Shown here one piece after another: positions 17,748-58,334 of a stretch of 61,579 nt of DNA; within the stretch, counting starts at the first letter, position 1; each line of letters opens with the position of its first letter. Source of the stretch: a virus (taxonomy: Duplodnaviria > Caudoviricetes); IMG/VR virus record IMGVR_UViG_3300031965_000028, positions 1-61,579 of that record; one strand, written 5' to 3'. The notes beneath the pieces were generated by a model. The model searched no databases, was not told the DNA's origin, and saw nothing but the letters and a program-made list of their open reading frames with translations. Position numbers and translations under genes: made by a program.

Positions 17748-17749
17748 CA

Positions 17750-18996: not shown

Positions 18997-19007
18997 CGGG
19001 GGATAGA

Positions 19008-19229
19008 ATGGATATTACCGCGATCTGTAACTTCGACTTCATGCGGTGTCAAAAATGCGGGCGGATCTGTACCAAGCCCGAGATCCTACGGTCTCTGGGA
19101 ATCGGGGGTACCGGCTCCTCCTGTCCCTGCGGCTCCATGAAGTACTCCCCGGCAAACCTGCCGTGGTGGGGGTGGTTCCTGCCGCGTGTGTGGAAGTTTG
19201 CCTACTTGCGGCTCCGGGGGGCGGCGTGA
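19008..19229 (+). CDS. Small Cys-rich protein
   Basis: CQKC...CPCG zinc ribbon. Confidence 0.6.
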   Translation: MDITAICNFDFMRCQKCGRICTKPEILRSLGIGGTGSSCPCGSMKYSPANLPWWGWFLPRVWKFAYLRLRGAA

Positions 19230-39969: not shown

Positions 39970-40461
39970 CTACCGCTCCCGGTCCATGTCTATATCGTCT
40001 ATCAGCCGCCCCACCTCTTTTGCCCAATCTTCCGAACATTCTTCGTAAATGGCATCAAGTACCCCCTCGGCCGCACGGTCTGCATGACTTCCTACCCCGT
40101 AGCGGTTGATAAAGGTGTAAGCCTCGATCAGATCGGCAAGGCGGAACACCTTGTAGGCAGGCTCGCTGATCATAGTTGCCATCGCATCCTGTAGCAACCA
40201 TGGACAGAAAACGGCAGAATTGGGGATGGTAATCTTGTTCTTGGCCGGAGTGGGAATATCGCCGGTACGAGACTCGTCCGCATCGTGGCACAGGACGTGG
40301 AGGACTGCTTCGAGAGGAAAAGGAGTAGAGGTACGGGCAGCGAGTTCGAGGGCGATAACCAACACCCGAAATACGTGGTCTGATACCGTCTGTTGTTTCA
40401 GGGTAGGCACAATCGTCCATCTTGGAACTATTGATAAAGCTAGTAAGTCTGTTAGTCGCAC
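39970..40461 (-). CDS. datZ: HD-domain dATP triphosphohydrolase (DatZ-like, YfbR fold)
   Basis: RWTIVPT..QTVSDHVFRV...HDADESRTGDIPTPAK...ADLIEA; linked to purZ. Confidence 0.85.
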   Translation of the reverse strand: MRLTDLLALSIVPRWTIVPTLKQQTVSDHVFRVLVIALELAARTSTPFPLEAVLHVLCHDADESRTGDIPTPAKNKITIPNSAVFCPWLLQDAMATMISEPAYKVFRLADLIEAYTFINRYGVGSHADRAAEGVLDAIYEECSEDWAKEVGRLIDDIDMDRER

Positions 40462-40853
40462 GGGTTACTCCTGTTCCAAGTTCTAATCTTGTGACAAACT
40501 GCACACACTACATCACACTTGGCCATCTCAGCCTTAATGCGCGCTATTCCTGTTCCTATATGACTGACATTAAACAGTTTCTCCCCGCGACAGTGATCGA
40601 ATTCCATACAGTAGTGTGGAAGTTCTACTCCGCAGTCCGCACAAGGTACTTCTTTAGAGGTCTGAAGGAACTTGCGTAGTCTAGCATATCTAGCTCTATC
40701 ATAGCTCCTAAATTTATTCGGGTTTCCTTTTTTGTATACTAGATGTTCTTTTTTGTACCTCTCTGGATCGCTGCTGCGATATAAGCGCATCCTAGCAGCA
40801 TTGCTAGGTCTTTCGTGTCGTCTATCTTTCTTTATTTTCGGGAGAGCTATCAC
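40452..40853 (-). CDS. HNH endonuclease
   Basis: CADC...MEFDH.RG.K...KCDVVCAVCH.IRT. Confidence 0.85.
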   Translation of the reverse strand: MIALPKIKKDRRHERPSNAARMRLYRSSDPERYKKEHLVYKKGNPNKFRSYDRARYARLRKFLQTSKEVPCADCGVELPHYCMEFDHCRGEKLFNVSHIGTGIARIKAEMAKCDVVCAVCHKIRTWNRSNPCD

Positions 40854-40856
40854 TAC

Positions 40857-41351
40857 TTAGTCCTCCTCTCCCTCATCGTACTGTTTCTTTGCTCGGAATG
40901 TTACATACGGCTGAACCTCGGTGCGCTTCGTCGCCTTCTCAAGCTGCTTCAGGGTGATTCCCTGTTCGATAAGCTTTTCGCGGACCAGCGATTCCCGTGG
41001 CTCCGGCTTTACGTACGCTGCTGTCCACGCCTCATCTCTCACCGACCAGCTCTCGCTATCGTCCACGTCCTCCATGATCGCTCGCGCTACTACCTTCTTT
41101 GCCTTTACTTCCTCTTCTAACCCCTTCATCTTCGCCGTCAGCTCCGTGATCTCGTCTCCCAGGTCTTTAAGGTCGTCCAGCTTCCCTCGAAACTTGCTGT
41201 CCCTCCAATTAGGGAGGTCGCGCTCCTCGAACTTACCGCGCTTCTTGTCGTTGATGGGTGGAGCAGCAACCCTAGTGGAAGATGGTCTGCTTGTCGCCCC
41301 TACTGCCCCTCTGACCCCCTTCGAACCCGCCGCTCCCTTTGCTCCTGCCAT
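40857..41351 (-). CDS. Hypothetical coiled-coil protein
   Basis: RBS, replication operon. Confidence 0.65.
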   Translation of the reverse strand: MAGAKGAAGSKGVRGAVGATSRPSSTRVAAPPINDKKRGKFEERDLPNWRDSKFRGKLDDLKDLGDEITELTAKMKGLEEEVKAKKVVARAIMEDVDDSESWSVRDEAWTAAYVKPEPRESLVREKLIEQGITLKQLEKATKRTEVQPYVTFRAKKQYDEGEED

Positions 41352-41506
41352 GTGACTCCTCCATTGTGTAGACGATTAGATCGATTCCGGGTGACTCGTA
41401 TCCGCAGTTCGGACAATAGACACTAAGCCGATTCTCCTCCAGGTTCAACATGAACGCGTGGCCGTAGCGGAAGGCGCACCAGCGCTCACGCCACATCTTT
41501 GACCAG

Positions 41507-44137
41507 CTAATCCTTGAGCTTCCCCCAAGACTGTGCGAACGATCCGCTTGATTTGACTGGGACCCGTAGCTTGGTAACATCGGTCATACCTCTTAGGATA
41601 ATGGGGGCTACATCCTCCCCCAGCCCTTCCAGTATCTCGAACATCAGACTATCGTGGATCTGCACGATAAACCTTACTGCCTTCCCATAGTCCCACAGTT
41701 GCTCCCACAGCCATCCCATGGTCCGTTGTAGCATTCCCTGTGCTCCGCCCTGGATCTTGTGCGAGTGCGTCTGCCGCTGTGCCTCCCACCTCTCCCACTT
41801 GTCCTCACTGAAGATCGCCGGTAGATACCGCTGCATCCCCCAGCGGTCCTTGATTACCCCTCCCGCTCTCCGGCACTCCTCATGGCACCCGGTCATATAG
41901 GTCTGAACCCCCGGATATAGCTTGAACCATTCTTTCCTCAGCTTGGCTACTCCGTTTAAATCCCATCCCTCGCACCCGGCCATGCGCAGCTGGTCCAGCA
42001 GTCCCTGGTCCTGTATTCCCGTGATGACCCCGAATCCTGCCCGCTTGCTAGGATACCGGTGCTTCATCTTATGCACCTGATCGTACGGGACCCCGAAGAT
42101 CTTGGAGGCGGTATCGGTATGGATGTCGATCTTGCCATCGTTGAATAGTCGTACCAGCCGTTCATCCCTGCTCTCGTCCGCCATGACCCGCATCTCGGCC
42201 TGATCCAGGTCTGCTTCGAACAGCTCGTACCCCTCTTCGGCCCGGTAACAGTCTCGCACCGACTTGCCTAGTTCGTTACGCACCGGAATAGCAAGGAGGG
42301 GAGCACTGGGGCGGTCATCGAAGGCGGTAGCAGAGAAGCGACCGGAGGAGACGCGGGTAATTTTAAGGTCGCACACCACGCGAGTCGAGGCTAGCTTTTC
42401 CGGCCAATTCTCTAGCACCGGGTCCACAAACGAGTCCCGTACTTTCTGGTGCTCTCTCCATTGTTCTATCTGCTCGATAGCCTCGTCCTCGAATCGCAGG
42501 TGCTCTATGGACTTCTTGCTCGTGCTCATTTTGCCGGTCGATGTCTTCTTCTCCCCTCTGAGCCCGCGCCTCCGCATTAACGTTGCCACCTGATCGGAAG
42601 ATGCTGGGTTGAACGGTCGTCCTTGGAAGTAATTCCTAGAGATCCCATCCCGTATTAACCCCATCTTCTCCGTCATCTCTTCGCCTAGCTTCTCGAAGGA
42701 CGCGCGATCGCCGGTAATCCCGTTGATCTTCATGCTCACCGCAGCGGGCAGCATGCGCATCTTCATAGTCATCAGCGAGTCCAGCCCAGCAGCGGAGATG
42801 GCGGCCTTCATCTTGGGATACAGGCGGAGGTTGGCATCGGGATCGCGGCCAGCGTAGTAGACGGCATCAGCTAGAGGGATATCGGCCAGAGTGCCGATGG
42901 GAAACGCGCCTAAATCCTTCTCTACTATTACTCGCAGCTCTCTGTCCACCTTCTTCCAGCGCTTGTGGGGGTCGGTCCTCCTTCCCTCTTTGTCCAGCTT
43001 CTCCGAGTAGTAATCTACTAGGATCGCTTCAGCCCTGCGCTGGACCGGCTGAGGAGTATACAAGTGCGCGCTACCGTCATTCTCGTGCTCTACTCGCGCT
43101 TCCGGCTTCCCCCACTTTCCCTCCATCACCCTTTCTAGATACCCCAGCTGCTTCTCCAGCCCCGCCTGCCCCACCGTCTCCGCGTAGTCCTTCATCACCA
43201 TTCCGCAGTGGCGGCGGGCGAGGTTCTTGAGGGACTGTGGCTCGACGCACAATAGATACGCCGCCATCATGGTATCGAAGATATCCACCTCGATGTCGTA
43301 GAGGAAATCGAGGCCCAGCCCTAGGCACATCTCGAAGTCATAGAGAGCAGGATGGACCACCAGCACCGGCTTCTTCTTCTCCAGCTTCTCTCGGAGCAGT
43401 GCGATGGCGCGAGAGAAGCGCGGGTGCCCCTTGCGCAAAACGAGGCCGGTTCCGGGGGCTACGGAGACTTGGACCGACCATTCGGAGCCCGGTACTCCCT
43501 CGGTGTCCAGCCCGACCGCACCTCCAGCCGCGCCCTCCTCCATCCCGCCCAGATACCAGTCGAAATTGCTGTCATCCAGGTCGAAGTACTGAGGCTTAGG
43601 ATGTAGGTCTATAGGAGGATCTACCGGTAGCTTGCCTTTAATTGCGGCAGCGGCACGCGCGTAGTCCCAGGTGACGAGCGGTAGAAGATCCTGATTATAG
43701 AAGGGGCTTGCAGGATGGTAGCAGGGGAGGATGGTAGCATCATAGCCAGCACCGTCCGACCAGCGGTGAGGAATGCCGTGGATGGCCTCCAGGTAGGCGG
43801 ACTCACCAAGGAAGAAGCGAGTAGAGAGAGCCCCAGCGGTGATGATGAACTTGGGCTTGATCTTGCGCAGCTCCGCTAATAGTACCGGCCCCCACTTGGC
43901 TACATCCTCGGGTTCGGGATAAGGGTTCCCCTGCCGGTACTCCTTCATCAGGTTTGTGAGCCAGCCGTCACGCCGGTCCAGCCCATTCCGCTCCAGGTGC
44001 GCATCCTGAGCCTGACCAGTGCGGCCTACGAACGGACGGCGACGGTGCGCCTCTTCCTCGCCCGGTGCTTCCCCTACTATGGCCCACCGCGCCTTGGGGT
44101 TGCCTTCGCCCGGAACGATAATACCAGTAGCGGCCAC
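41507..44137 (-). CDS. polA: Family A DNA polymerase with N-terminal UDG-family (SPO1-type) domain; candidate Z-selective polymerase
   Basis: GEAPG..E....PFVG..G and YHPA (UDG); LDTE/LYD/YAGRD exo motifs; DLDQAEMR, RYPSKRAGFG, QIHDSL. Confidence 0.93.
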   Translation of the reverse strand: MAATGIIVPGEGNPKARWAIVGEAPGEEEAHRRRPFVGRTGQAQDAHLERNGLDRRDGWLTNLMKEYRQGNPYPEPEDVAKWGPVLLAELRKIKPKFIITAGALSTRFFLGESAYLEAIHGIPHRWSDGAGYDATILPCYHPASPFYNQDLLPLVTWDYARAAAAIKGKLPVDPPIDLHPKPQYFDLDDSNFDWYLGGMEEGAAGGAVGLDTEGVPGSEWSVQVSVAPGTGLVLRKGHPRFSRAIALLREKLEKKKPVLVVHPALYDFEMCLGLGLDFLYDIEVDIFDTMMAAYLLCVEPQSLKNLARRHCGMVMKDYAETVGQAGLEKQLGYLERVMEGKWGKPEARVEHENDGSAHLYTPQPVQRRAEAILVDYYSEKLDKEGRRTDPHKRWKKVDRELRVIVEKDLGAFPIGTLADIPLADAVYYAGRDPDANLRLYPKMKAAISAAGLDSLMTMKMRMLPAAVSMKINGITGDRASFEKLGEEMTEKMGLIRDGISRNYFQGRPFNPASSDQVATLMRRRGLRGEKKTSTGKMSTSKKSIEHLRFEDEAIEQIEQWREHQKVRDSFVDPVLENWPEKLASTRVVCDLKITRVSSGRFSATAFDDRPSAPLLAIPVRNELGKSVRDCYRAEEGYELFEADLDQAEMRVMADESRDERLVRLFNDGKIDIHTDTASKIFGVPYDQVHKMKHRYPSKRAGFGVITGIQDQGLLDQLRMAGCEGWDLNGVAKLRKEWFKLYPGVQTYMTGCHEECRRAGGVIKDRWGMQRYLPAIFSEDKWERWEAQRQTHSHKIQGGAQGMLQRTMGWLWEQLWDYGKAVRFIVQIHDSLMFEILEGLGEDVAPIILRGMTDVTKLRVPVKSSGSFAQSWGKLKD

Positions 44138-44814
44138 TAATAGTCCTTGCCGGTTGACCGGTTGATATTACCAATGGTCTCTTGTGCTAAGCCCTGTGTC
44201 GCACCTGTTCGCGCTTCCCGGTCCTGCTCCGTCGTGCGCTCATACCCCATCACGAATATCGCGTTTAATACCACCCCTGCTGCATCATCATCGATCAGAG
44301 CAAGCGGCGGAGGAACATTCGGACCGCGCATCCGGTCGCGGATCAGCAGCAGGTGTTCGATGGCGTGGTTGATGCGATCGAAGATGAACTCCCGGTCGCG
44401 TAATCCTTGTTGCCAGTTATCTACCCCGTACTTCTCCGCACCCAGCTCGAATCTCCGTGCGATCCGCTCCAGTGCCCACGTCGGAATAAGGTCGTAGCGC
44501 GGTTTCCGTCCGGATGAAGTAGCACCGCTGGTAAATACGTGCTTTTCGCTCGTGTTCATTCCCTTCCCCCTGTAACCATCTGGGACCTCGATACCAGTAA
44601 TCTCTCCGTGTGATCTAGGTGTAGGCACCTCTTCCTCCTTCTGATACACTACACGTTCAACCTTGATGATCTCGCTAGTGCTAAGATCAATGGTGATCGT
44701 ATCTCCAGCTTCGATATTCACCGGAGCGATCCACCCGGTCACTCTTTCCGCCTCCTGATCGCGCTCACCGCCGACTTCGCTATAGTCGGACCTATCCCCT
44801 TTATCTCCCGCCAC
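44137..44814 (-). CDS. dATP/dGTP diphosphohydrolase domain protein (DUF5664-like); true start may be downstream
   Basis: KPRYDLIP..ALERIA..FELGAEKYGVDNWQQG...HAIEHL. Confidence 0.8.
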   Translation of the reverse strand: MAGDKGDRSDYSEVGGERDQEAERVTGWIAPVNIEAGDTITIDLSTSEIIKVERVVYQKEEEVPTPRSHGEITGIEVPDGYRGKGMNTSEKHVFTSGATSSGRKPRYDLIPTWALERIARRFELGAEKYGVDNWQQGLRDREFIFDRINHAIEHLLLIRDRMRGPNVPPPLALIDDDAAGVVLNAIFVMGYERTTEQDREARTGATQGLAQETIGNINRSTGKDY

Positions 44815-45479
44815 TCTTCTACCCCCGCTTCTATCATCTCTGCCACGCTTTCAAAGTGCTTCGCCGCCGCCCATCCCCGCACATAGTCTATCGCAGGTAG
44901 CCCCGATGCTACCTTCGCCATAATCGCCTCAACGGGATCCGCGTCCGGTGGCGCTGCCGTCTCTCCGCTCTTGTCGAACACCTGTAGCCCCCGGTGCTTA
45001 TCCCAGGGCTTCTCCAACCAGTGGTCCATGACTGCCAGCCACGTAGCTGCTTCGTTGAGGTCGTATACTTGCTTGACCCGAAGCGGCGTAAGCATCTGAG
45101 CAGTAAGGAGGAACCCCTCGAGGTATGAGTATGGGACCGGCCTCCGCCCCAGCTTATATTGTTTCCACAGCTTCCCGCGTCGAACCTGAAGATTGTTATC
45201 AGGTCCGGACCGGTGCACGCCGTAGTATAGAAGGAAGCTATAGTCATAAGCAGCCAGCATTCGAGGAATCTGAGTTGCACCTAGCCGTCCGGTGGAGATA
45301 GAGGATAGGAGATCCGATAATGACTTGACCTCTACCCCAACCGTAATCACCGAGCTATCGGGACCGCAGCCAGTAAGCATGACATCGGCCGAGTCCAGCG
45401 TCACTAATTGACACCGGCCGTCGAGCGCAGGCATGTCGGCCAGATCCCTGCTACCTGCGCGAGAATCAACGAGAATCAC
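44739..45479 (-). CDS. ERCC4/XPF-family nuclease with HhH (resolvase candidate)
   Basis: ILVDSR, GVEVKSLSDLLSSI..GRL..Q, IKGIGPTIA. Confidence 0.85.
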   Translation of the reverse strand: MILVDSRAGSRDLADMPALDGRCQLVTLDSADVMLTGCGPDSSVITVGVEVKSLSDLLSSISTGRLGATQIPRMLAAYDYSFLLYYGVHRSGPDNNLQVRRGKLWKQYKLGRRPVPYSYLEGFLLTAQMLTPLRVKQVYDLNEAATWLAVMDHWLEKPWDKHRGLQVFDKSGETAAPPDADPVEAIMAKVASGLPAIDYVRGWAAAKHFESVAEMIEAGVEEWREIKGIGPTIAKSAVSAIRRRKE

Positions 45480-45701
45480 GTACGATACACTCTCTTGGAA
45501 TCTGCTGTAGCCCTACATAGCCTTGTAACGCCATCTCACGTAGATATCGTAGATGCATCATTGCCGGGCGTCCATCTGGAAACCGCGTCAATATGATACA
45601 GTACTCGCTGCGCCACAACCACTCATCAGGGTGTTTTTCCTGTACTCGACGGCGAGCGACTGGACTAACAAATAACTTTATATAGTCAGGCAAAGTAACT
45701 C

Positions 45702-46976
45702 CTACACCTTGCGGTCGAGCGTGTGGCAATCCTCGGGACCGAAGCTGACCAGCCGTACTGAAGCCCTGCACCACTCCTCTAGCTGCCTGGTATATTCCTG
45801 CTGGTCCGCCGTCCACTCTCGGGGCAAGGTAAACCAGCTCTCCGGCCACACGTAATTGGCGAAGGTGAGTGCTACCCACGCCGGTCGTATCTGCCGTGCT
45901 GCCGTTTCTACCGTTTCCCGGTCCAGCCGCGCGATTCGCCTCAGCTTCTTTGTTACCGTGGTCAGCTCGAACAACGTCGATAGCTCCTTAACCGTCGCCT
46001 CGGGCAGCGACATCAGCGCCGTCTTGTGAACCTCGGATAGCGCGGCCTGATAGTTGAGGCGGTCTGCCGCAGACCAGCGGTGCTGGTTGAGATGGGACCA
46101 GTTGGCCGGTCCATCGAAATTCTTTCCTGCCTCCACTACCGCTTCCTCGAACGATGCTATGGCACCCTCGCGGAGTAGCGGCGGCAAACCCGCCCTGTCG
46201 CGAAGAGCATTCATCTCCCGCGCCAGCTCCGGCCAGCTAGTCTCCTGTGGCATCGGGCCAGAGTTTCCAGCAACGCGGATGGGATAGGTGCGGACTACCA
46301 TGCAGATCTCGGTTGGCAACGCGGGACTCAATCCACACTCCAACATCCACTGTGCCGGTCCCGTCTGCTTGTGGGTGGTGTAGGGGTAAGGGCCGAGATA
46401 CAGGTCGAGCAACTGTCCCTGGGTACCTTCGAGCAGAATCTTCGCGCCCTCGTTCCAGCTATAGTTCAGCAGCGCCTCAGTGTCACACACGTCGTAGCCG
46501 TCGCTTTCGTGGGTGTCTCCAAATTGCTGGTAGCCTAGTCCTCGGCCCGTGATTCTTTCGACCAGCGCTTCACTCGCACCTTTGCCCGTCGCACCGATAG
46601 CATGGTGACGACCAGAGTCTTTGCTGCGGGCTGCGTGGTACGGACGGTGAATGCCTGCGCGGCGGTCGATGGAAAGGCGCTCGCGGATGTCGGTGCCGGT
46701 CAGAGCGGAGATTTCACGGACCTCACGATCAAGGATAGTAGGATCAATCAGGGCACCAGCGCCAATCACCAGCCGCGTATCCGGGTTCACCCATCCAACC
46801 GGTAATTGCTGGTTCACGTAGCGGGAGCCATTGTAGTAGACCGAATGGCCAGCGTTGACTGCGCCTGTCCGCACTGCTATGTCCATCCGCTCCTTCTTGC
46901 ACAGGTAGCCCGCCACGAGCCCCTTACTTTCCGAACCGAACTGGCCTCCCTGCACGATAATTATCGGATTGCCCAT
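45702..46976 (-). CDS. purZ: N6-succino-2-amino-dAMP synthetase (PurZ family)
   Basis: PurA fold with GGQFGSESKG (Ser for catalytic Asp), NAGH, EGTQG, RTYPIRVAGNSGP, ELTTVTKKLRRI. Confidence 0.92.
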   Translation of the reverse strand: MGNPIIIVQGGQFGSESKGLVAGYLCKKERMDIAVRTGAVNAGHSVYYNGSRYVNQQLPVGWVNPDTRLVIGAGALIDPTILDREVREISALTGTDIRERLSIDRRAGIHRPYHAARSKDSGRHHAIGATGKGASEALVERITGRGLGYQQFGDTHESDGYDVCDTEALLNYSWNEGAKILLEGTQGQLLDLYLGPYPYTTHKQTGPAQWMLECGLSPALPTEICMVVRTYPIRVAGNSGPMPQETSWPELAREMNALRDRAGLPPLLREGAIASFEEAVVEAGKNFDGPANWSHLNQHRWSAADRLNYQAALSEVHKTALMSLPEATVKELSTLFELTTVTKKLRRIARLDRETVETAARQIRPAWVALTFANYVWPESWFTLPREWTADQQEYTRQLEEWCRASVRLVSFGPEDCHTLDRKV

Positions 46977-46978
46977 CT

Positions 46979-47437
46979 CTAATCCTTCGGGTCGGCTTGC
47001 GCCCGTAAATTAAGACGCCGAATCTCCGCGTGGATGGTTTCCTTGTAGCGCGGATCTCGGGCCTTAGTGTTAAATGGTTTGCCTTTTCTACTTCTATTGG
47101 TCTCCGCAACAGTAAGGTATTCCAACAGCAGCTCAGCCTGTCTTTTCTTTAATACTAACCACGGTATAACAATGGGCAACCATGTCTTTAAATCCTCGGC
47201 CGACATTCTCCAAGTATACTGCCTTCGGTTGCGAGGGCCTCTGCGTCTATGGACATACACTCTAGTGATGCCTGTCTTCTCAATCAGAGCATCTGATAGT
47301 CTAGAGTCCGTATTGGCGATGGATACTACAGGACGGAATGTGTTAGCGTTATGTTTGCGTCGGTCGATCAACATTACACTACCTTCTCCGTCTATAAGTG
47401 CAGCAAGCCACGCGGCGGTAGTTTTGGGGACTCTCAT
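46979..47437 (-). CDS. LAGLIDADG homing endonuclease (leaderless start MRVPK)
   Basis: AWLAALIDGEGSV, ANTD, PWLVLKKRQAEL. Confidence 0.88.
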   Translation of the reverse strand: MRVPKTTAAWLAALIDGEGSVMLIDRRKHNANTFRPVVSIANTDSRLSDALIEKTGITRVYVHRRRGPRNRRQYTWRMSAEDLKTWLPIVIPWLVLKKRQAELLLEYLTVAETNRSRKGKPFNTKARDPRYKETIHAEIRRLNLRAQADPKD

Positions 47438-47443
47438 GTCCAG

Positions 47444-47473
47444 ATTGTAACACACCTATGGGTGTGGCTGCAA
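47444..47473 (-). promoter_or_regulatory. sigma-70-type promoter TTGCAG-N18-TACAAT
   Basis: TG-extended -10, 6 nt upstream of ATG. Confidence 0.6.
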
Positions 47474-47477
47474 TACC

Positions 47478-47687
47478 CTAGCCATCCGCGTTCTCTCCAT
47501 CCGGCACTCGGCCGAGAATCGTCACCATGTTCGACACGCATGCCGATATCATCACCTTCTCTCCGTTCCTCAGCACCACTACCCGCTGCTTCTGCCCCGC
47601 GTGACTGACCGCTACTATCTGGTCTATCTCCACGTAGACGTAGCCGATAGGGTAACGCTCGAGCTTCTCTAGCCGTAAGTTAGGCAC
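47478..47687 (-). CDS. Small hypothetical protein (FlbD-like beta pattern)
   Basis: VYVEIDQIVAV...VVVLRNGEKVMI. Confidence 0.55.
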   Translation of the reverse strand: MPNLRLEKLERYPIGYVYVEIDQIVAVSHAGQKQRVVVLRNGEKVMISACVSNMVTILGRVPDGENADG

Positions 47688-48120
47688 CAGCGGCCTCCAT
47701 TTCCTTGTACATCGCCGCCAGCTGCTTTACTACCATGGCCCCGGCGTGGATGAGTTCCTTGCGCAAGTCGTCCAGTCCGCGCCGCTTCTCCTCGCTGCCC
47801 AGCCTGCCGACGTGTAGAGAGGTTCGCTGCAGCTCCACCGCCGCCTCCAGCAGTTCTTCCATCGTTATTGCCGACCGCCGTAGCGAGTCCTCCGGGTATA
47901 CCGGGTGCTTGGCGATGGACCGCACGTACTCGGCTTCGATGTCCTTCCACACCTTGGCCAGCACCGAATCGTTAATCAATACGCTCATGTGTCCTGCCTT
48001 CTTGCCACTCGTTCCCGTCGCTTCGACGTTCGGGTGAAATTGCTCGCAGACGCAACTGGAGAATCCCTGACCGCAGCGGGTACACACCTTCATAGCCCCT
48101 CTCACTTCTTCCCTAACCAT
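47680..48120 (-). CDS. MazG-like NTP pyrophosphohydrolase (possible MazZ function)
   Basis: KHP...AITMEELLEAA...LRKELIHAGAM (EExxE...E helix pattern); near purZ. Confidence 0.6.
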   Translation of the reverse strand: MVREEVRGAMKVCTRCGQGFSSCVCEQFHPNVEATGTSGKKAGHMSVLINDSVLAKVWKDIEAEYVRSIAKHPVYPEDSLRRSAITMEELLEAAVELQRTSLHVGRLGSEEKRRGLDDLRKELIHAGAMVVKQLAAMYKEMEAAGA

Positions 48121-48539
48121 TCATCCCTGTCCGTATCCGTCGCCATCGCTAGCTTTCTTTCTATCTGATGAGGACATTTGCCATAGGCCGATATAGCAAA
48201 GTTACAATTACAACACAGCAACCTAAGTCCCTTCCGTTTTCTTTCTGCTAACCAACAGTAGTAGGTTTGGCGGTTCTTAAATTGGCTACGGTGCGCTTTA
48301 CCCCCTCCGTGGATGTGGTCGATACACAGAAACTCTGGTCTGTGTTCTCCACAACACTTACACCTATCGCCATACCTAGCTAGCACTCTAGCCATTCTTC
48401 GCTTATCGGCCCTCCTAGCTTGGGCTTTGGCTAAGCCGGGGTTCTCCTTGCGCCACCTGCGTTGAGTTGCAGCCGCAGTCTCTCGGTCTTTAGCGGGCAC
48501 GTAGCCAATCCTCACGAGTGGTATCTGTGGCAAGAGCAA
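48102..48539 (-). CDS. HNH endonuclease (same subtype as 16083-16577)
   Basis: CKCCGE...FLCIDHIHGGG...LLCCNCN. Confidence 0.8.
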   Translation of the reverse strand: MLLPQIPLVRIGYVPAKDRETAAATQRRWRKENPGLAKAQARRADKRRMARVLARYGDRCKCCGEHRPEFLCIDHIHGGGKAHRSQFKNRQTYYCWLAERKRKGLRLLCCNCNFAISAYGKCPHQIERKLAMATDTDRDEWLGKK

Positions 48540-49335
48540 GGATACTGGCGAAGTTCAGATCATCCCCCTCGACGCTCACTCCCTCCAGTGCTGGTCCATT
48601 TGGACTCAATTTGCAAACCTGAATCTCGGCCTTGAACTCCCCGTCCTCCCGGTAGCAACGCACCGCCAGATCACTAAGGTATCCGATCTCCTTGAACCCG
48701 GCCCTCAGCATCTTCCCTGTTCTCACGCTCTGCATCTCCCCTTCCTTCAGCCTGTCCACGTACTCTTCCTTGAGCTGGTGGATGGTGATGAGGTGCTTAC
48801 CGTGAGTGCGGTAGACGGTGCGGTGTAGCTGCCGATACTTGGCGTTCACCGGACCATACAGCCGGTCCATGCGGCGTCCTCGGGGAGTCAGGGTTCCGAA
48901 GCTCGCGAGCCGGATAAGCTCCCACCCCTCGGTGCCGGTGTCTATCACTACTCCCTTCGCCCACCGCGCCGCCGCTTCCCCTACCCGCTTCTCCAGGTTG
49001 AACCACGCCTCCGCGCAGTTGGCCTTAACGGTTTCTTCGCTGAGCCCTATCGCATAGCGCACCGGTAGAATCTTGATCCCGTCTCGCTGCTTCTTCCCTT
49101 CCGGCTTCTTTGCGCGGTCGGCGGATTGATCGATGTCCACGTAGCCAAGCGGTCCTACCTCGGCCAGCGTCATTGCGAGGGAAGATTTTCCTGCTCCCTC
49201 TAGCCCGGTAATGTCCATGAAGATACCTCGGCGCGGGATGTTGGAGGTAGACATCGAGCTAAGGTCCTCCCAGTCGGCCTTGCCATCTACCCCCTCGTTC
49301 GTCTCGCTGCCCGCCTTACTCTTTAAAGCCATCAA
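48490..49335 (-). CDS. P-loop ATPase (Sak4/AAA_24-like recombination protein)
   Basis: GLEGAGKS, VVIDT, ITIHQLKEEY. Confidence 0.75.
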   Translation of the reverse strand: MMALKSKAGSETNEGVDGKADWEDLSSMSTSNIPRRGIFMDITGLEGAGKSSLAMTLAEVGPLGYVDIDQSADRAKKPEGKKQRDGIKILPVRYAIGLSEETVKANCAEAWFNLEKRVGEAAARWAKGVVIDTGTEGWELIRLASFGTLTPRGRRMDRLYGPVNAKYRQLHRTVYRTHGKHLITIHQLKEEYVDRLKEGEMQSVRTGKMLRAGFKEIGYLSDLAVRCYREDGEFKAEIQVCKLSPNGPALEGVSVEGDDLNFASILALATDTTREDWLRAR

Positions 49336-49557
49336 CGTGCCTTTCTTCGACCGGGAATGTATACCAGTTCAGCACCTGATATTCCCCGCTGGTCATCTCA
49401 TTCCAGTTGGGCCTGCTAGCCGGGTCATGATCCAGAGATGCGGAGTCCCTGTTCATCGCATCTACCTCCCAGGACTCGAATTTGATCGAATTGAAGAAAT
49501 CGCGAGTGTTGAGGCTCGGTATCCCCAGCACCGCCACTATCGTAAATTTCGGCATCG

Positions 49558-50301
49558 CTACACCTCTTCCAGTCTTCCGTTGCACCATAATCGCAGCTCT
49601 CCCTCGTCCTCCAGCTCCCAGTTCCGCGCTCTCCTTCTCGCTATCTCGCACTGCTCCTTATCCCGGTCGAACCCCAGCCATGGTCGCCCCACTACGGCGG
49701 CAGACACGAGCGTAGAGCCGCTGCCACAGAAGGGGTCAAGGATGGTATCGCCTTCCTTCGACAACAGGGAAACAAGAAACGTTGTTAGTTCTATCGGCTT
49801 CTGCGCCGTGTGCAGCTTGTCCATCTGCGCCACCTTGTCGCACACCAGGATGTTAGAGTATATCGCCCGCCGCTCCGAGTTCCACGTGTGACGGGCTCCG
49901 GGTGCGGCGAACCACAGGATGTGAGTGCACAGGGAGCCGAAGTTCCGCGCCCTTGGCTTACCGGCGTTCCACATCACCATCAGCTCGGCCATCCATATGA
50001 ACCCGGCGTCCTCCATCGCTACCATCCACGCGGCGGTCGCATGCACCCCGGCCATTACCACTGTTGCCCCGCCTTTCCTCAGCACCCGCTTGAACTGGGT
50101 AGCATAGGGCCGCGCCCACTCTACGGCGGAGGAGGAAGAGGAGACGGAGGGAGCCCATGGATCGCTACCTACCCCGCCCTCATCGCGGCTTATGCCGGTA
50201 AAGAAGGGAGGGTCGCTGATAATGGCTCCTATGCTATTGTCTGGTAATCTAGAGAGCAGGTAAAGCGAGTCACCGCGCGTTACTCGATTGAGAGAGGTCA
50301 C
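49558..50301 (-). CDS. Beta-class amino-DNA methyltransferase (N6A/N4C)
   Basis: ISDPPF (motif IV) ... HTAQKP ... ILDPFCGSGST (motif I). Confidence 0.92.
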   Translation of the reverse strand: MTSLNRVTRGDSLYLLSRLPDNSIGAIISDPPFFTGISRDEGGVGSDPWAPSVSSSSSAVEWARPYATQFKRVLRKGGATVVMAGVHATAAWMVAMEDAGFIWMAELMVMWNAGKPRARNFGSLCTHILWFAAPGARHTWNSERRAIYSNILVCDKVAQMDKLHTAQKPIELTTFLVSLLSKEGDTILDPFCGSGSTLVSAAVVGRPWLGFDRDKEQCEIARRRARNWELEDEGELRLWCNGRLEEV

Positions 50302-50314
50302 CGCCGTCTCCTTG

Positions 50315-50905
50315 TTATTCTTCCTGTGCGTAGCTGTGGATCATCGACCAGTTCTCAATCAGCTCCTCTTTCGCCCATTTATCCATCCACATCATCCCCT
50401 CCGGTGGACCACCCTTATAGTCCCCGTTGATGAACACGATGATAAGGACCCCGCGACTCATTCCCGCCATGATCGCGTAGGATTTGAGCTGCCACCAATA
50501 CCGGGCAAACCATTGATCCTCGATGTCCTCGGCCCGGCGCGAGGAGGCCCACGTGCACTTCAGCTCCACCGTCGCCCACGCGGACATCGGTAGATCCTTT
50601 TTTGGTTTCTTATTGCTACCGCCCCACATATCCCACAGGTCCGGGGTGCCATAGATTCCCTGGTAGTGGAGCTGTCCCGGCCGCACATAACGATCTGGGT
50701 ATTCGCGGGCGAGCGCCTCGATCATGGCGTATTCGAGTGCGTTGCCTAGGTTGGCCCGCACCTGATCGATCGGGTCAGAGCCGAATCTGTCAGGATATAG
50801 CGCGCTCATGATGCGGTGAATCGCAGATGAGACGTGACGACCCTTCGATCGCCCTTCCTGACGAAAAAGCTCTAACAGCCGATCGTTGATCAGGCGCGGA
50901 GCCAT
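50315..50905 (-). CDS. PD-(D/E)xK exonuclease
   Basis: GTPD...VELKCT...WQLKSY. Confidence 0.8.
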   Translation of the reverse strand: MAPRLINDRLLELFRQEGRSKGRHVSSAIHRIMSALYPDRFGSDPIDQVRANLGNALEYAMIEALAREYPDRYVRPGQLHYQGIYGTPDLWDMWGGSNKKPKKDLPMSAWATVELKCTWASSRRAEDIEDQWFARYWWQLKSYAIMAGMSRGVLIIVFINGDYKGGPPEGMMWMDKWAKEELIENWSMIHSYAQEE

Positions 50906-50944
50906 TGTGCTATCGCTTGTGACTATCGCTGGTTGTGCCGCTGG

Positions 50945-51820
50945 CTATCCGACCGACAAGATCCCCGTCTTCTCGTCGAAGTCCCACGGGCCGTCTTCCA
51001 CGAAGTCCGCTTCCATCACCCTCTTTACTGCCCGCGCCTTGTCCTTATCCTTCGCCATGGCCTTCAGGATCTCGGTGGCCAGCTTGCCCTTCTTCAGCTT
51101 GCCGCCCGCCTCGGAGATGGCCTCCATGACGACGCCCTGAAGCTTGTCATCCAGATCGTCGCCGCCGCCCGTCTCTTCCTCTTCCGGCTCAGGCTTACTG
51201 GTCGCCCGTCCCGCCTGTCCGTTGGGCTTCGACGCCTTCTTGCCGCTCTTGCTCGTCTCCGCCTCGCCGTAGCCGAAGACTTCCGTTACCACCAGCACAT
51301 CGTTCGCGCGCCTTCTTCCCTCTTCCCCCTCCGCTTGCACCAGCCCCGACCGCTTCTTCTGCGGCACACGGTTGAAGTGAGCGTCGAGCCCTTCCAGGCA
51401 GTCGAGCGATGAGGTGAGGTCCTTGCGCGTGAACTTCTTGCTGGCCTCGCCCGCGTCCACGATGCTGCTCATCAGGTGCGCGAAGTTGGTGTTGTTGTTC
51501 AGACCCGCTCTCTTCCCCACCTTGAGCGCGAATGGCCCCGTCTCGTCTTCGTCGCATGGCGTCTTGCCATCCTGCGAGGGAACGAACGAGTCGAGGTTAC
51601 CCGCGCTCCACCGCTGCACGAACGGTTCATCTTCATCCTCGGGCTGAATGGTGAGTCGCGCTGCCAGCACCGGTTCATCGATGTTACCGTCGTAGTCCCA
51701 GCGTTCGTAGACCGCCTCGATGATGCGGCCCCGAAAATCATCCTTCAGCCCGCCTGCCAGCATCTCGTCCGGGTTCAGGCTTGCTACTTCTGCTCTCTCT
51801 TTCGCCATGTGTATCTCCAT
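50945..51820 (-). CDS. Acidic protein, probable ssDNA-binding protein
   Basis: Beta-rich N-terminus, acidic; upstream of exonuclease and ATPase. Confidence 0.5.
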   Translation of the reverse strand: MEIHMAKERAEVASLNPDEMLAGGLKDDFRGRIIEAVYERWDYDGNIDEPVLAARLTIQPEDEDEPFVQRWSAGNLDSFVPSQDGKTPCDEDETGPFALKVGKRAGLNNNTNFAHLMSSIVDAGEASKKFTRKDLTSSLDCLEGLDAHFNRVPQKKRSGLVQAEGEEGRRRANDVLVVTEVFGYGEAETSKSGKKASKPNGQAGRATSKPEPEEEETGGGDDLDDKLQGVVMEAISEAGGKLKKGKLATEILKAMAKDKDKARAVKRVMEADFVEDGPWDFDEKTGILSVG

Positions 51821-51844
51821 TGCGTTAACGCGTTAACCTAGCTA

Positions 51845-52075
51845 GGGTCGGTGATGGAGGGACCGTGAAGCCCAAGGAGGCGAGAATAGTGCGTCGTCCA
51901 GGGGTCACCGGAGTAGGTGATGGCTCTCTCCTTCCACCACCGCAGCGCACTATGTCCCGTTTTGAAACACCCACAGTCCCTCCGTGTAGGGCCAACACCC
52001 TCCGGAGCGACAGGCAGGAGTACCGTTGTCGGATTCGGAGAGAGTAGGCTGGCCCGCCCGAAAGCAGGCCGAGCG
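51845..52075 (-). ncRNA. Putative ~230-nt structured leader RNA
   Basis: Nested stems 51856-67/51972-83, 51886-93/51946-53, 51916-23/51934-41; mismatches resolve as G-U only on minus strand. Confidence 0.6.
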
Positions 52076-52078
52076 AGG

Positions 52079-52108
52079 ATTCTAACTCTGCCGTTGCGCC
52101 CCTGTCAA
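52079..52108 (-). promoter_or_regulatory. sigma-70-type promoter TTGACA-N18-TAGAAT
   Basis: Near-identical to 3813-3842. Confidence 0.8.
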
Positions 52109-52155
52109 TACTGAGCCACAGCGCACCTGCTACCGCTCAATCGGCGGCACGACCA

Positions 52156-52371
52156 CTATGCGCGGGACACATTCGCCGCTCTCGGCCCCTTCTTTCCCTC
52201 CGTCTCCTCGAATTCCACCTCGGTGCCGCGCTCCAGGCTGTCGAAGCTGAACCCCGGCTCTTCCTGTATATCGCTCATGTGGAAGAAGTAATCCTGGCCG
52301 TTCGGCCCCTCCAGAAAGCCGAATCCGCGATCTTTCACTGTTCGTTTCACTTTACCTATAGCCATGCCCAA
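52156..52371 (-). CDS. Cold-shock domain protein
   Basis: GKVK...DRGFGFL...DYFFHMSDI...VEFE...GKKGPRAANV. Confidence 0.92.
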   Translation of the reverse strand: MGMAIGKVKRTVKDRGFGFLEGPNGQDYFFHMSDIQEEPGFSFDSLERGTEVEFEETEGKKGPRAANVSRA

Positions 52372-52868
52372 TTCCTTCGTCGGTTAATCCTTGCTATCAT
52401 TGTAGTTGAGACTTCGTACTTACGTGCTAGTACGTTGCCTGCTTCCCCTGTCGCCAACCTACTCCTAATATCTAGTACCTCTAGCTCCGTTAGCTTACCA
52501 CCACCGCCATTGGCTTCACCCCTTGCTGTACGTCCTTTATTACACTTATCTCGTACATTATCTATACTGGTACCAAGGAATAGGTGCTTAGGGTTGCAGC
52601 ACGGAGGACTATCACACCGATGTAGTACTTGTCTTTTCGGCCAATACCCTCGTGTTACTCTCCAGGCGATTCGATGTGCTCGTCGAAGGTATTTGCGGCC
52701 TAGAGCGCGTATAGTAAGAGTGCCGTACCCGTCCCTATCCGTACGCGCCGTCCATGGCCAACATTCGTCCGGCCCCCGTATATCAACGTGTAGCCAGAAT
52801 CGCTCGGATAGACTCATGTTTCTACTTCCGTGAAGCTCCTTACCCGCCGAATCGAAGAGCGAAACCAC
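52356..52868 (-). CDS. HNH endonuclease with C-terminal HTH
   Basis: ECWPW, AHRIAW, VLHRCDSPPCCNPKHLFLGT..DN..D. Confidence 0.9.
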   Translation of the reverse strand: MVSLFDSAGKELHGSRNMSLSERFWLHVDIRGPDECWPWTARTDRDGYGTLTIRALGRKYLRRAHRIAWRVTRGYWPKRQVLHRCDSPPCCNPKHLFLGTSIDNVRDKCNKGRTARGEANGGGGKLTELEVLDIRSRLATGEAGNVLARKYEVSTTMIARINRRRNWAWL

Positions 52869-55282: not shown

Positions 55283-55932
55283 TCGTTGCTCGTCTCGGGT
55301 GGGGCGGGCACGCGAGCGGCCTCCCCTCGTTCAGCGTTGGCGACGATTGCGCCGATCTCAGCGCCGAGGTCGTTCAGCGAACGCGCGGGCACATGGAGAT
55401 AGGCGTGGCCTCGCGCATCGTGCCGCGTCTCACATGCGAGAACGGCCTTGAGCGCCGCCAGCAGGTCGGCATTGACCGGCTGTTCCGGCTCCGCTGCCCC
55501 TCGCCCCGCCTCGCATGCGTCAGAACATCCGCCGTCCGCGCACCAGTCACGTTTCGCCTGCGGCTTCTCCGCTGCCCCTCGGAGGGAGGCCAGCGACTCG
55601 AAATACTTGTCTCGCCACCTGGCCGCTGCTTCCTGCCACTCGGGGGTCTGTTGCGTCCAGTCGCCACCGCTGACGTTCGCGAGCACAACCCATAACATTT
55701 CCGCCGCATCCTTCAGCGTCTCCACCTCTGGCGAGGGTCGCAGGGAGGCCAGTGCCGAGGCCAGTTCGTCCGTGCAATTTTTATATACCTGCGCCTTGCC
55801 CTCCCAATAAGATGGATCCTCCGTGACAGCAGCAAACTCAGCGACTTTGGCGTCGTAAAACGCTTGATCTTTGCGCCACTTGGCTATCAGCGCCTCGACC
55901 GGGTTAGACATCGGCCTTGCTCCATGTTTCAC
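55279..55932 (-). CDS. Hypothetical mosaic protein
   Basis: ORF in operon; contains DLLAALK module. Confidence 0.55.
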   Translation of the reverse strand: MKHGARPMSNPVEALIAKWRKDQAFYDAKVAEFAAVTEDPSYWEGKAQVYKNCTDELASALASLRPSPEVETLKDAAEMLWVVLANVSGGDWTQQTPEWQEAAARWRDKYFESLASLRGAAEKPQAKRDWCADGGCSDACEAGRGAAEPEQPVNADLLAALKAVLACETRHDARGHAYLHVPARSLNDLGAEIGAIVANAERGEAARVPAPPETSNE

Positions 55933-57143: not shown

Positions 57144-58193
57144 TCAGACATCGCAACCGGGCGTACCGGGTCGCCGAAATGGCCCATACGGAACATGACA
57201 TCCGTGACTTACAAGGAACCCCATGAACCGCTTGTAATCCCTATCCGGCATACCAAATAAGCGCACCACGCACCTGTACTGTCCATGCGTCGCAATCAGC
57301 CCCCGTTGAATAAGCATCCTAATATCCTGCCGCACGAGATCACGATCTCGATAGAGCGGATACGCATGTGTCCAGAACGATTGTCCCGGAGTAGTGACCG
57401 CAGCATAAAGTGTATTGGTAAGATGCTGCCGCCGATCCTGTTGCGGCTGTAACTCGGACGACGGTAGCGCTGCCTCGATGTGCTCGATATCAATAACCGT
57501 GTCTGACGCGGCCCACCGTGCACACGTGATGACGTGTTCCAACTCTCGGACATTGCCCGGCCACGCGTACTGTGCCAGGCGCGCGCGTGCGGCCTGCGTG
57601 ATGATCATCGGCTCTGCTATACGAGCAAGGAAATGATCGATCAGGAGTGGAATGTCGGCCCGGCGTTCCCGTAGCGGAGGCACGGCTACCTCAAGCACTC
57701 GCAGTCGATACATCAGGTCGGCCCGGAAGGAGCCTGCTGCGACCATACCGGGTAGATTGCGATGCGTGGCCGCAATCACGCGGGCATCTACTCGCGAAAC
57801 CGTATCCGATCCTACGGGCTGGATCTCCCCGCTTTCCAGGAAACGCAGGAGCGCCGCTTGCATGCGCGGCCCCATCTCCCCGATCTCATCCAGAAAGACG
57901 GTGCCCTGATGAGCTGTCCGCAATTTTCCAGGTCGTTCACGATCAGCGCCGGTGAAGCTACCCCTCAGGTGTCCGAACAACTCCGACTCAAGGAGCGCGT
58001 CCGTCAAGGCCGCACAATTTACAGGTATAAACGCGCGGGCGTGCCGCTTCGACGTCACATGTACGCGGCGAGCGATCAAGTCCTTGCCTACGCCGGTTTC
58101 CCCGGTAATAAGAATCTTGTCGTCGCCAGCGGCCATGCGGTCCACGGATTGTAGTAGCGACTGCGTAGCGTGTGCACCAATGAATACCGGCAT
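57144..58193 (-). CDS. sigma-54-dependent enhancer-binding protein (AAA+ plus divergent Fis-type HTH), no N-terminal sensor domain; start likely MPVFIG
   Basis: ITGETGVGKD, VNCAAL, ESELFGH, GSFTGA, FLDEIGEM, FRADLMYRL, WPGNVREL. Confidence 0.93.
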   Translation of the reverse strand: MPVFIGAHATQSLLQSVDRMAAGDDKILITGETGVGKDLIARRVHVTSKRHARAFIPVNCAALTDALLESELFGHLRGSFTGADRERPGKLRTAHQGTVFLDEIGEMGPRMQAALLRFLESGEIQPVGSDTVSRVDARVIAATHRNLPGMVAAGSFRADLMYRLRVLEVAVPPLRERRADIPLLIDHFLARIAEPMIITQAARARLAQYAWPGNVRELEHVITCARWAASDTVIDIEHIEAALPSSELQPQQDRRQHLTNTLYAAVTTPGQSFWTHAYPLYRDRDLVRQDIRMLIQRGLIATHGQYRCVVRLFGMPDRDYKRFMGFLVSHGCHVPYGPFRRPGTPGCDV

Positions 58194-58334
58194 TGGACTT
58201 ATAGCGCGGCTTTGTGCCGTTATCACAAGAACATCCTTTTGATTAACATGAACGCCCCTAGCAGGAGCGCCCATAAACCTAGTGATATAGCGACGACGGC
58301 CAGAAACGCTGGCCGTCGCCACCTGAACTCGAGA

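Follow-up and report, generated by a model that had tools for sequence, protein, structure and literature searches.

Does the phage represented by IMG/VR virus record IMGVR_UViG_3300031965_000028 carry 2-aminoadenine (Z) in its DNA in the place of adenine? Z-genomes are, to our knowledge, the only natural departure from A:T pairing, and the question is raised by the replication module of this linear record, which is 61,579 bp long, has an estimated completeness of 77% and was analysed over its whole length (the window). The module is a minus-strand block from 39,970 to ~55,900, in which a candidate succino-aminodeoxyadenylate synthase (PurZ-like), a DatZ-like HD-domain protein, a stand-alone DUF5664 protein and a PolA-type DNA polymerase are encoded. 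From the sequence we infer that Z is likely to stand instead of adenine in this phage; what the enzymes do, how much Z the DNA contains and any bias of the polymerase towards Z are deductions of the same kind. The observations behind this reading are homologies, conserved specificity residues, gene linkage across relatives and clade structure.

The original prediction, made from the letters of the window alone, had named purZ, a DatZ-like HD enzyme, a dATP/dGTP diphosphohydrolase-like domain and PolA, all of which were recovered at the positions given below. Its proposal that Z substitutes for A gains from the conserved residues and from comparison of the PurZ, DatZ and DUF5664 set and stays a deduction from sequence, while the third hydrolase and the Acidobacteria host attached to it fell away. 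The locus is a variant of the known Z system: its PurZ belongs to a separate long-form clade with an insert, no MazZ was found in the window and, instead of a DpoZ polymerase, there is a PolA fused to a uracil-DNA glycosylase (UDG) with Thr at position B4 of motif B. The long-form clade and the Thr-bearing UDG-PolA, which are what makes the locus unusual, had been overlooked. The features on which the argument turns are as follows.

39970..40461, minus strand: DatZ-like HD protein, predicted dATP triphosphohydrolase, 163 aa (phrog_7076, PDB 6zpa)
41507..44137, minus strand: fusion of family 4 UDG, 3'-5' exonuclease and PolA, replicative, 876 aa (Pfam UDG 3e-18, exo1 2.1e-7, DNA_pol_A 2.6e-65)
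42017..42058, minus strand: PolA motif B, RYPSKRAGFGVITG (B3 = F702; B4 = T706, the Klenow Tyr766 position)
44137..44814, minus strand: stand-alone DUF5664 (PF18909) protein, candidate dATP/dGTP pyrophosphohydrolase, 225 aa (38.2 bits, cut-off 27)
44739..45479, minus strand: ERCC4/helix-hairpin-helix nuclease (ERCC4 2e-6), found between PurZ and PolA across the lineage
45702..46976, minus strand: long-form PurZ-like succino-aminodeoxyadenylate synthase candidate, 424 aa (PF00709 1.5e-41, phrog_1211 8.5e-61)
45969..46223, minus strand: helical insert of PurZ, ~85 residues (252-336), between the ETSW and TTVTKK loops

The long-form PurZ and its relatives

The P-loop of the window PurZ reads GGQFGSESKG, with Ser15 at the position of Asp13 in PurA, and the YPIRV motif is present; Ser15 is invariant in all 25 aligned members of the clade. 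F13 and S15 align with F12 and S14 of the phiVC8 enzyme (VpPurZ) and the TTVTKK loop with its T262 and K267, and counterparts of the dGMP-pocket residues tested (VpPurZ F12, S14 and T262, with K267 for R303 of PurA) are present. The stretch F372-A-N374-Y375 aligns with F295-C-N297-Y298 of VpPurZ, and F372, N374 and Y375 are invariant in the clade; E. coli PurA has TKLD here, and the PurZ0 enzymes of phages Wayne and Ghobes and most short forms keep the Asp. This F/N/Y motif suggests an ATP-type donor site in the window PurZ. In E. coli PurA, the exchange Asp333Asn alters the nucleotide specificity. The roles of the dGMP-pocket and donor residues are those given in section 4 of bioRxiv 10.1101/2025.10.22.683976 and section 8 of PMC8342488. 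One sentence in section 24 of PMC12884076 assigns ATP to PurZ0 and GTP to PurZ, contrary to the Introduction of the same paper, according to which PurZ uses ATP or dATP; the titles of PDB entries 6fko and 7odx show the same.

The AlphaFold2 (AF2) model of the enzyme has a PurA fold, with a mean predicted local distance difference test score (pLDDT) of 86.7 and a predicted template modelling score (pTM) of 0.88. In Foldseek, the target-normalised TM scores were 0.89 for Pyrococcus horikoshii PurA, 0.82 for phiVC8 PurZ and 0.79 for PurZ0 (7vf6), with E values of 1.6e-29 for 5k7x and 4.1e-22 for 6fko, and the core superposes on all three of these enzymes and on S-2L PurZ. The PDB alignments end at about residue 254 and restart at about 335, the intervening block being absent in every PurA, PurZ and PurZ0 match, and therefore ~85 residues (252-336) are an insertion between the ETSW and TTVTKK loops. 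All 25 clade members that were aligned have the insert, in which N256 and S314 never vary; it is modelled as helices at 248-261, 270-284, 303-308, 310-323 and 326-336 (block pLDDT 84-95). A search of the Atlas with the insert only returned adenylosuccinate-synthetase clusters and no other domain.

Relatives with the Ser-type P-loop were gathered from genome and viral collections using the clade alignment, a search of the genome contigs with the single PurZ protein having returned none. Among the 144 loci with a recognisable P-loop, 142 had Ser, two Gly and none Asp, a count that is uninformative on PurA at large since the search patterns were drawn from the Ser-type family. The canonical PurA rows in the trees were E. 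coli and three bacterial genomes, short Asp-type PurA of archaea not being among them. The window PurZ falls in a well-supported separate clade of enzymes of 407-476 aa with the helical insert. In a FastTree of 191 rows, with the insert columns dropped automatically, the 45 long-form rows formed one clade (SH-like support 99), as they did in a quick IQ-TREE of 87 rows (SH-aLRT 99). In the careful tree, built on 353 columns without the insert, the long clade held 31 rows with an ultrafast bootstrap (UFBoot) of 100 and SH-aLRT of 98 and was present in 200 of 200 bootstrap trees; the four reference PurZ formed a clade of their own (100/100), Wayne and Ghobes fell in a third, and the long clade branched at the base of the Ser-type group, at a poorly supported node (54/88). 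A sister relation of the long clade to short enzymes of the L007 type, seen in the quick trees (SH-aLRT 95-96), was absent from the finished careful tree and was rejected.

In the phage collection, no record exceeded 35.5% identity to the window PurZ, and of the 215 matching records a single one, a Flavobacterium phage protein annotated as adenylosuccinate synthetase (24.9% identity), covered at least 80% of it. The large protein collection gave 2,252 clusters at E<=1e-10 among 8,000 scored candidates; the best 120 of these, the window's own excepted, were 50-66% identical and 379-455 aa long, with a query cover of 89-100%. The window stands for a large uncultivated lineage with long PurZ, which includes at least 120 clusters of proteins (50-66% identity), on contigs of up to 117 kb.

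DatZ, DUF5664 and the polymerase

The HD protein matched phrog_7076 ('dATP triphosphohydrolase', 1.7e-21) and PDB 6zpa, the DatZ of S-2L (1.4e-10), and all 57 records of the phage collection that matched it came from phages of the phiVC8, SH-Ab 15497, S-2L or PMBT28 type or the like. Its closest reference is the DatZ of phiVC8 (35.6% identity). When aligned with the DatZ of S-2L, phiVC8, SH-Ab 15497 and PMBT28 and with five homologues from the lineage, the ten sequences shared R14, W15, H29, H59, D60, E63, D68 and K74, with D110 nearly invariant, so that the HD metal ligands H29, H59, D60 and D68 are all kept. W15 (10/10) and I17 (8/10) correspond to W20 and I22 of S-2L DatZ, which are described in the literature as sugar and base determinants. 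The window protein is on these grounds a candidate DatZ-like enzyme, predicted to act as a dATP triphosphohydrolase.

The DUF5664 protein exceeded the cut-off of PF18909, the N-terminal domain of dATP/dGTP diphosphohydrolase, and its best reference match was gp50 of Wayne (42% identity over 45 aa, 8e-8), which is given as a dATP/dGTP/dUTP pyrophosphohydrolase yielding monophosphates in section 20 of PMC12884076. A119, G125, Y129, N133, W134, G137 and H154 form a core invariant in five sequences, among them those of Wayne (gp50) and SH-Ab 15497 and two homologues from the lineage. No PF04447 (DUF550) or MazG match was found in the 225-aa protein; only its residues 96-144 align with the SH-Ab 15497 protein, at the N-terminus of the latter.

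The linkage of these genes was followed across relatives, numbered L001 onwards, with hidden Markov models (HMMs) built here. DatZ was found in nine of the ten long-form loci whose sequence runs on for 4.8 kb or more downstream of purZ (all but L093), compared with none of the 62 short-form viral loci and none of the 78 bacterial loci. Pfam annotation of six related loci gave, in five of them, the order long PurZ, ERCC4, UDG-PolA, HD/DatZ; the HD gene of L095 was missed by Pfam and detected via blastp and the DatZ HMM. The ERCC4 nuclease is present in 12 of 18 long-form viral loci (blastp). The position of DUF5664 varies, as it lies before PurZ in L100 and between ERCC4 and PolA in L085 and the window. 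ThyX was observed in two related loci and dUTPase in one. Sections 25-26 of PMC12884076 tie DatZ to PurZ phages and stand-alone DUF5664 to PurZ0 phages, and the HMM results therefore indicate that this lineage joins the two. PF00709, HD_3/YfbR-like, dGTP_diPhyd_N and PolA/exonuclease domains are reported within 3 kb of purZ on contigs enriched for dZ by experiment in section 5 of bioRxiv 10.1101/2025.10.22.683976.

The contig L201 is syntenic with the window, with helicase, p291, p196, AAA_24, ERCC4 and UDG-PolA in the same order. In a FastTree of the polymerases, L201 groups with L202 (SH-like 99) and both with the window (SH-like 99). L202 has Thr at B4 and carries PurZ, DatZ and DUF5664. 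In L201, B4 is Tyr, and its ORFs over 9.9 kb upstream and 5.9 kb downstream gave no match to PF00709, HD or DUF5664. L201 is a natural matched control.

The polymerase spans UDG (residues 9-149), exonuclease (202-323) and polymerase (480-872) domains in Pfam, the N-terminal UDG having been passed over by the original prediction. It matches the NCBIfam UDG_fam4 model (1.7e-25), and the same fusion occurs in L085, L087, L097, L100 and L201. GEAPG and HPA, which we take to be the UDG motifs, are present, and the UDG site may be intact. None of the 37 records of the phage collection matching at E<=1e-20 covered at least 80% of the protein, and identities were 25-30%. The UDG-PolA architecture has been described for N4-like (cluster 17) and unclassified polymerases, e.g., that of SPO1, in PMC10201439, whose B3/B4 nomenclature is used here. 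According to the same source, PolAs normally have Tyr at B4 and both DpoZ clades Phe. Phe was found there in all five reference DpoZ, compared with Thr706 in the window, which has Phe at B3. The residue at B4 was surveyed in the 80 viral loci found with the alignment of the lineage PolA:

B4 Thr: 11 loci; PurZ-like in 10 (long form), DatZ in 10
B4 Tyr: 30 loci; PurZ-like in 1, DatZ in 0
B4 Asn: 27 loci; PurZ-like in 12 (short, mostly 360-390 aa), DatZ in 0
B4 Met: 4 loci; PurZ-like in 0, DatZ in 0
B4 Phe: 5 loci; PurZ-like in 0, DatZ in 0
B4 misaligned: 3 loci; PurZ-like and DatZ left blank

Both Thr-type misses, for PurZ and for DatZ, are loci without the relevant flank. Three phylogenetically independent pairs were available on supported branches, of which ~2.5 went in the same direction and none in the opposite; with only three such pairs the sign test (p at least 0.25) cannot reach significance, and the association of B4 with PurZ is therefore not statistically shown. 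The UDG-PolAs with Asn at B4 make up a sister lineage (L206-L254, e.g., L207:10001-12559 and 16084-16836), with a short Ser-type PurZ-like gene in 12 of its 27 loci and DatZ in none. A general rule that PurZ-linked PolAs lose Tyr at B4 was discarded, as Tyr is retained by 35 of the 39 PolAs that lie next to a short-form PurZ-like gene in viral loci. The authors of PMC10201439 considered B4 unlikely to influence discrimination between A and Z. The literature on these systems distinguishes two PurZ branches (PurZ and PurZ0) and two DpoZ branches. It seems doubtful, though conceivable, that the UDG-exonuclease-PolA is a third and independently arisen Z-DNA-adapted polymerase, in which case the loss of Tyr at B4 (to Thr here, to Asn in the sister lineage and to Phe in DpoZ) would be convergent and the long PurZ would be the matching third branch.

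Proposed pathway and competing readings

The locus would be a Z-DNA-type module most likely working as in S-2L, with a candidate PurZ for synthesis, DatZ for exclusion of dATP and a pyrophosphohydrolase for supply. In such a pathway the DUF5664 protein would convert dGTP and dATP to dGMP and dAMP. The long-form PurZ would join dGMP and aspartate, with ATP or dATP as donor, to give N6-succino-2-amino-2'-deoxyadenylate, and host PurB and host kinases would complete dZTP. DatZ would remove the triphosphate from dATP, so that, as proposed, adenine could not be incorporated, and the phage UDG-exonuclease-PolA would copy the genome from a pool with dZTP in the place of dATP. A DpoZ would not be required, because S-2L achieves full substitution through DatZ and a non-selective PrimPol (PMC10201439, PMC8599892).

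The closest parallel is the S-2L cluster (datZ-mazZ-purZ, with PrimPol), with which the window shares a PurZ with the ATP-type motif, the W/I pair of DatZ, a polymerase that is not DpoZ and the need for host PurB and kinases. It differs in a PurZ of 424 aa with the ~85-residue insert and a GSESKG rather than GSTGKG P-loop, in a stand-alone DUF5664 in place of MazZ and a UDG-exonuclease-PolA in place of PrimPol, and in that its three genes are spread over 7 kb amid replication and homing-endonuclease genes. With the phiVC8/SH-Ab 15497/PMBT28 group (PurZ, DatZ, DUF5664-DUF550 or MazZ-2, and DpoZ-2) it has in common DatZ and the location of PurZ and PolA in one replication module; unlike that group, its PurZ is at most 35.5% identical to any phage-collection record, its DUF5664 protein has no DUF550 domain, and its motif B has F/T at B3/B4 compared with L/F in phiVC8-like DpoZ. 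The PurZ0 phages Wayne and Ghobes (PurZ0, DutZ/DmtZ, DUF5664-1 and DpoZ-1) are alike in a GSE(A/S)KG P-loop and a stand-alone DUF5664. However, the GTP-type Asp retained by PurZ0 is replaced by Asn in the window PurZ, neither a Dut nor an NDT gene turned up in the window, and PurZ0 phages are described as being without DatZ in the passages of PMC12884076 that deal with them. Compared with known UDG-PolAs, that of the window has Thr at B4 and is linked to PurZ and DatZ. Among the papers that literature searches on PurZ, PurZ0 and DatZ listed, none describes a long-form PurZ or a PurZ-linked UDG-PolA in its title or abstract, although the original PurZ0 paper and the preprint supplements may show long forms.

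The lineage unites a structurally distinct PurZ, DatZ and a polymerase type not previously linked to Z. Z-genome enzymes are sought for the production of ZTGC DNA in vivo, and, given the distinct PurZ and polymerase and the matched control L201, the role of the insert, and whether B4 matters for replication with Z, are directly testable.

A number of results weigh against a Z-genome and are best considered together with the alternatives they favour. The NCBIfam model of PurZ (NF038379) gives the window PurZ 197.4 bits against a cut-off of 300, and an archaeal-type PurA model outscores it with 213 bits, also below its cut-off; annotation pipelines call the long form a plain adenylosuccinate synthase, and the NCBI PurZ model misses that of the window. 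Ser-type short enzymes occur beside a canonical Asp-type PurA in three of three larger genomes (Dehalococcoidia, Bradyrhizobium and Acidobacteriota) and are the sole PF00709 match in five of five small genomes (0.6-2.2 Mb), in which they perhaps serve the cell itself in the AMP pathway. Since Ser-type enzymes are thus also cellular, Ser15 alone is no proof of dGMP specificity, and the argument draws on it jointly with the F/N/Y motif, DatZ and the gene linkage. In approximately unbiased (AU) tests, uniting the long clade with PurZ (p 0.77) or with PurZ0 (p 0.76) was not rejected. The topology of the quick trees is little trusted, as the likelihood of the unconstrained quick tree fell below that of either constrained tree. 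The PurA/PurZ/PurZ0 phylogeny called for by the original prediction has yielded a distinct long clade (100/98) that may join either PurZ or PurZ0.

Some of these results would fit a PurA-like enzyme acting as an auxiliary purine gene (IMP to adenylosuccinate or another reaction), beside an HD protein that is a general (d)NTP/dNMP hydrolase, in a phage with ordinary adenine DNA. It agrees with the scores above that the best PDB sequence match of the window PurZ is P. horikoshii PurA, and the HD protein also matches the 5'-deoxynucleotidase YfbR. We nevertheless regard this explanation as unlikely. The window PurZ shares the ATP-type F/N/Y motif and the TTVTKK loop with PurZ enzymes of known biochemistry, the W/I pair of DatZ is kept, PurZ and DatZ are linked in nine of ten loci, and PurZ, DatZ and DUF5664 are jointly lost in L201; moreover, an enzyme destroying dATP would hardly be sensible for a phage with adenine DNA.

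Further results weigh against a Z-genome or bear on how complete the substitution would be. The polymerase is not a DpoZ, its scores being far below the cut-offs of both NCBIfam models (DpoZ_1 NF038380, 77.7 bits versus 500; DpoZ_2 NF038381, 61 versus 350) and its identity to five DpoZ proteins only 19-25%, so that the identification of PolA as a DpoZ-type polymerase was abandoned. The window showed neither a MazZ nor a DUF550 domain, and DUF5664 was detected by its HMM in four of the 20 long-form loci, compared with 26 of 62 short-form viral and none of 78 bacterial loci. An N6_N4 DNA methyltransferase is encoded at 49558-50301 (minus strand), which would be odd if it targets adenine. An N6-acting enzyme could have Z or host DNA as its target, the alternative being an N4-cytosine enzyme; DNA methyltransferases also occur in the relatives L102 and L087. 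The departure from DpoZ and the missing MazZ/DUF550 would fit a phage that makes Z and substitutes it partially, with a polymerase that has no preference for Z and dATP incompletely cleared by DatZ and DUF5664. The chance of this is slim in our estimate, given that S-2L is fully substituted with DatZ and a non-selective polymerase, and that Tyr at B4 is given up precisely in the sub-lineage linked to PurZ. A fully substituted Z-genome remains the preferred reading over both.

The original prediction went further and counted three purine-dNTP hydrolases, the third being a MazG-like enzyme:

47680..48120, minus strand: 146-aa protein with a Cys-rich N-terminus and a three-helix domain (no Pfam, NCBIfam or PDB match)

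This protein had no match in Pfam, NCBIfam or the PDB sequences, nothing significant in the Atlas, two weak matches in PHROGs to families of unknown function, and nothing below E 0.13 in a PDB profile search. HMMER gathered 38 representatives of its family at E<=1e-3, mostly 95-120 aa long and aligned to residues 45-140, and two of 36 members weakly matched PRA-PH in Pfam (E 0.088). The family keeps R72, E79, E80, E83 and E113 (P0121 numbering), an EE..E motif followed by a later invariant Glu; three residues past E113 it has Q or H, compared with the ExxE...ExxE/D ligand pattern given for MazG-type enzymes in the literature. An alignment with hhalign sets EE..E on the EExGE motif of S-2L MazZ over 14 columns, with a probability of 7.5%, and gave nothing significant against PMBT28 MazZ or the window DUF5664. 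The AF2 model consists of three long helices (pLDDT 88.8); Foldseek returned no match at E<=1e-3, the weak rows including the MazG-like DR2231, YpjD and AF_0060 (E 0.2-1.5), and VIA-align found generic helical hairpins only (Z<=9.3). With the closer 8-sequence alignment (A3; the full alignment A2 was too divergent), homologues were found in 14 viral loci, one with a DpoZ-like PolA and one with DUF5664, and in none of the 14 was PurZ/PurA or DatZ present within +/-10 kb. The protein, having no tie to MazG beyond weak matches, is therefore not counted in the pathway, and its candidacy as MazG/MazZ was dropped, leaving DatZ and DUF5664 as the supported hydrolases.

An Acidobacteria-type soil host, the other element of that fuller proposal, has in its favour that phiVC8 PurZ is annotated as 'similar to Solibacter usitatus'. 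Distant relatives of the major head protein were, however, found in one of 301 Acidobacteriota genomes (28% identity) against 12 of 301 Pseudomonadota genomes (best 37% identity, 2.7e-40), so the host leans weakly to Pseudomonadota. With three purine-dNTP hydrolases and an Acidobacteria-type host, the proposal is accordingly very improbable.

Neighbouring genes and side observations

The other features of the replication module are as follows.

40452..40853, minus strand: HNH homing-endonuclease-like gene (phrog_3106 2.5e-22)
40857..41351, minus strand: 164-aa protein kept in the sister contig L201 (no family match; L201 tblastn 2e-7)
46979..47455, minus strand: LAGLIDADG-type homing-endonuclease-like gene adjoining purZ upstream (phrog_5046 3.6e-19; LAGLIDADG_3 E 0.0071, which is below the cut-off)
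47478..47687, minus strand: 69-aa ORF (no family match)
48102..55282, minus strand: remaining co-directional replication genes (HNH/EndoVII-like, AAA_24/Sak4-like, N6_N4 DNA methyltransferase, conserved proteins of 196 and 291 aa, HNH, intein-bearing helicase)

All genes from 39970 to 55932 point in the same direction on the minus strand. Neither the promoter scan (10 promoter-like sites versus 7.4+/-2.9 in shuffles) nor the terminator scan (four terminator-like sites versus 10.9+/-3.4, the minus strand having none) exceeded shuffled sequences, and the leftward operon proposed earlier is therefore to be read as co-orientation only, the single transcription unit not being borne out. The gene order of the 48102..55282 block is repeated in L201, L207 and L220.

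Free-standing homing-endonuclease-like genes (HNH or LAGLIDADG) number five in the window, at 16083-16577, 40452-40853, 46979-47455, 48102-48539 and 52356-52868. The replicative helicase (52814-55282, minus strand) has 822 aa compared with ~540 aa in L097 and L100 and carries an intein (Intein_splicing, residues 96-319) with an HNH endonuclease at residues 240-287, as does that of L087. This load of homing endonucleases, five genes and the helicase intein, is unusually high and is clustered near purZ and the replication genes.

A plus-strand block at 7-39 kb encodes terminase, portal, major head protein, an SU10-type adaptor and a lysin, and no tRNA genes were found in the window. The phage is probably podovirus-like, a label that agrees with the original prediction and with the structural block, the morphology being deduced from the SU10-type adaptor match only. 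The phage phiVC8 is a podovirus. Podoviridae are named among the ZTGC phages in PMC8599892.

The five small genomes with a Ser-type enzyme as their sole PF00709 match are of the Patescibacteria type (Saccharibacteria, Minisyncoccia and one labelled Gammaproteobacteria; loci L007-L010, L012 and L017 of genomes G606-G610). Their enzymes are 335-360 aa long and lie amid housekeeping genes, with a Ham1 (ITPase) gene directly after them in L007-L009; that of L007 has an Asn-Tyr donor motif. In the 78 bacterial and archaeal loci (L019-L084; e.g., L038:9995-11932 and L031:9995-12033), a dCTP-deaminase-like (DCD) PF22769 gene lies near the short Ser-type gene in 48, and in 40 it is on the same strand within ~140 nt after it. 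Dehalococcoidia, Nitrospira, Acidobacteriota, Bradyrhizobium, Nitrosomonas and a metagenome-assembled genome of Methanosarcinales are among the organisms, and three of these genomes also have a normal PurA. PADLOC had no match, either for the four window proteins (PurZ, DatZ, DUF5664 and PolA) or for the PurZ-like/DCD pairs of bacteria. The pairing is rare in viral loci (3/80) and resembles the PurZ0 and DutZ pair of phages; it may be what is left of a prophage, a defence acting on nucleotide pools or something else.

Within the structural block, the plus-strand stretch 16935-19912 encodes a protein of the radical-SAM/SPASM type, two ORFs resembling class-I methyltransferases and one resembling a glycosyltransferase. 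An AAA+ protein of the sigma-54 activator type (57144-58322, minus strand; Sigma54_activat 7.2e-61) was also observed, and its presence in the phage implies a host that uses sigma-54.

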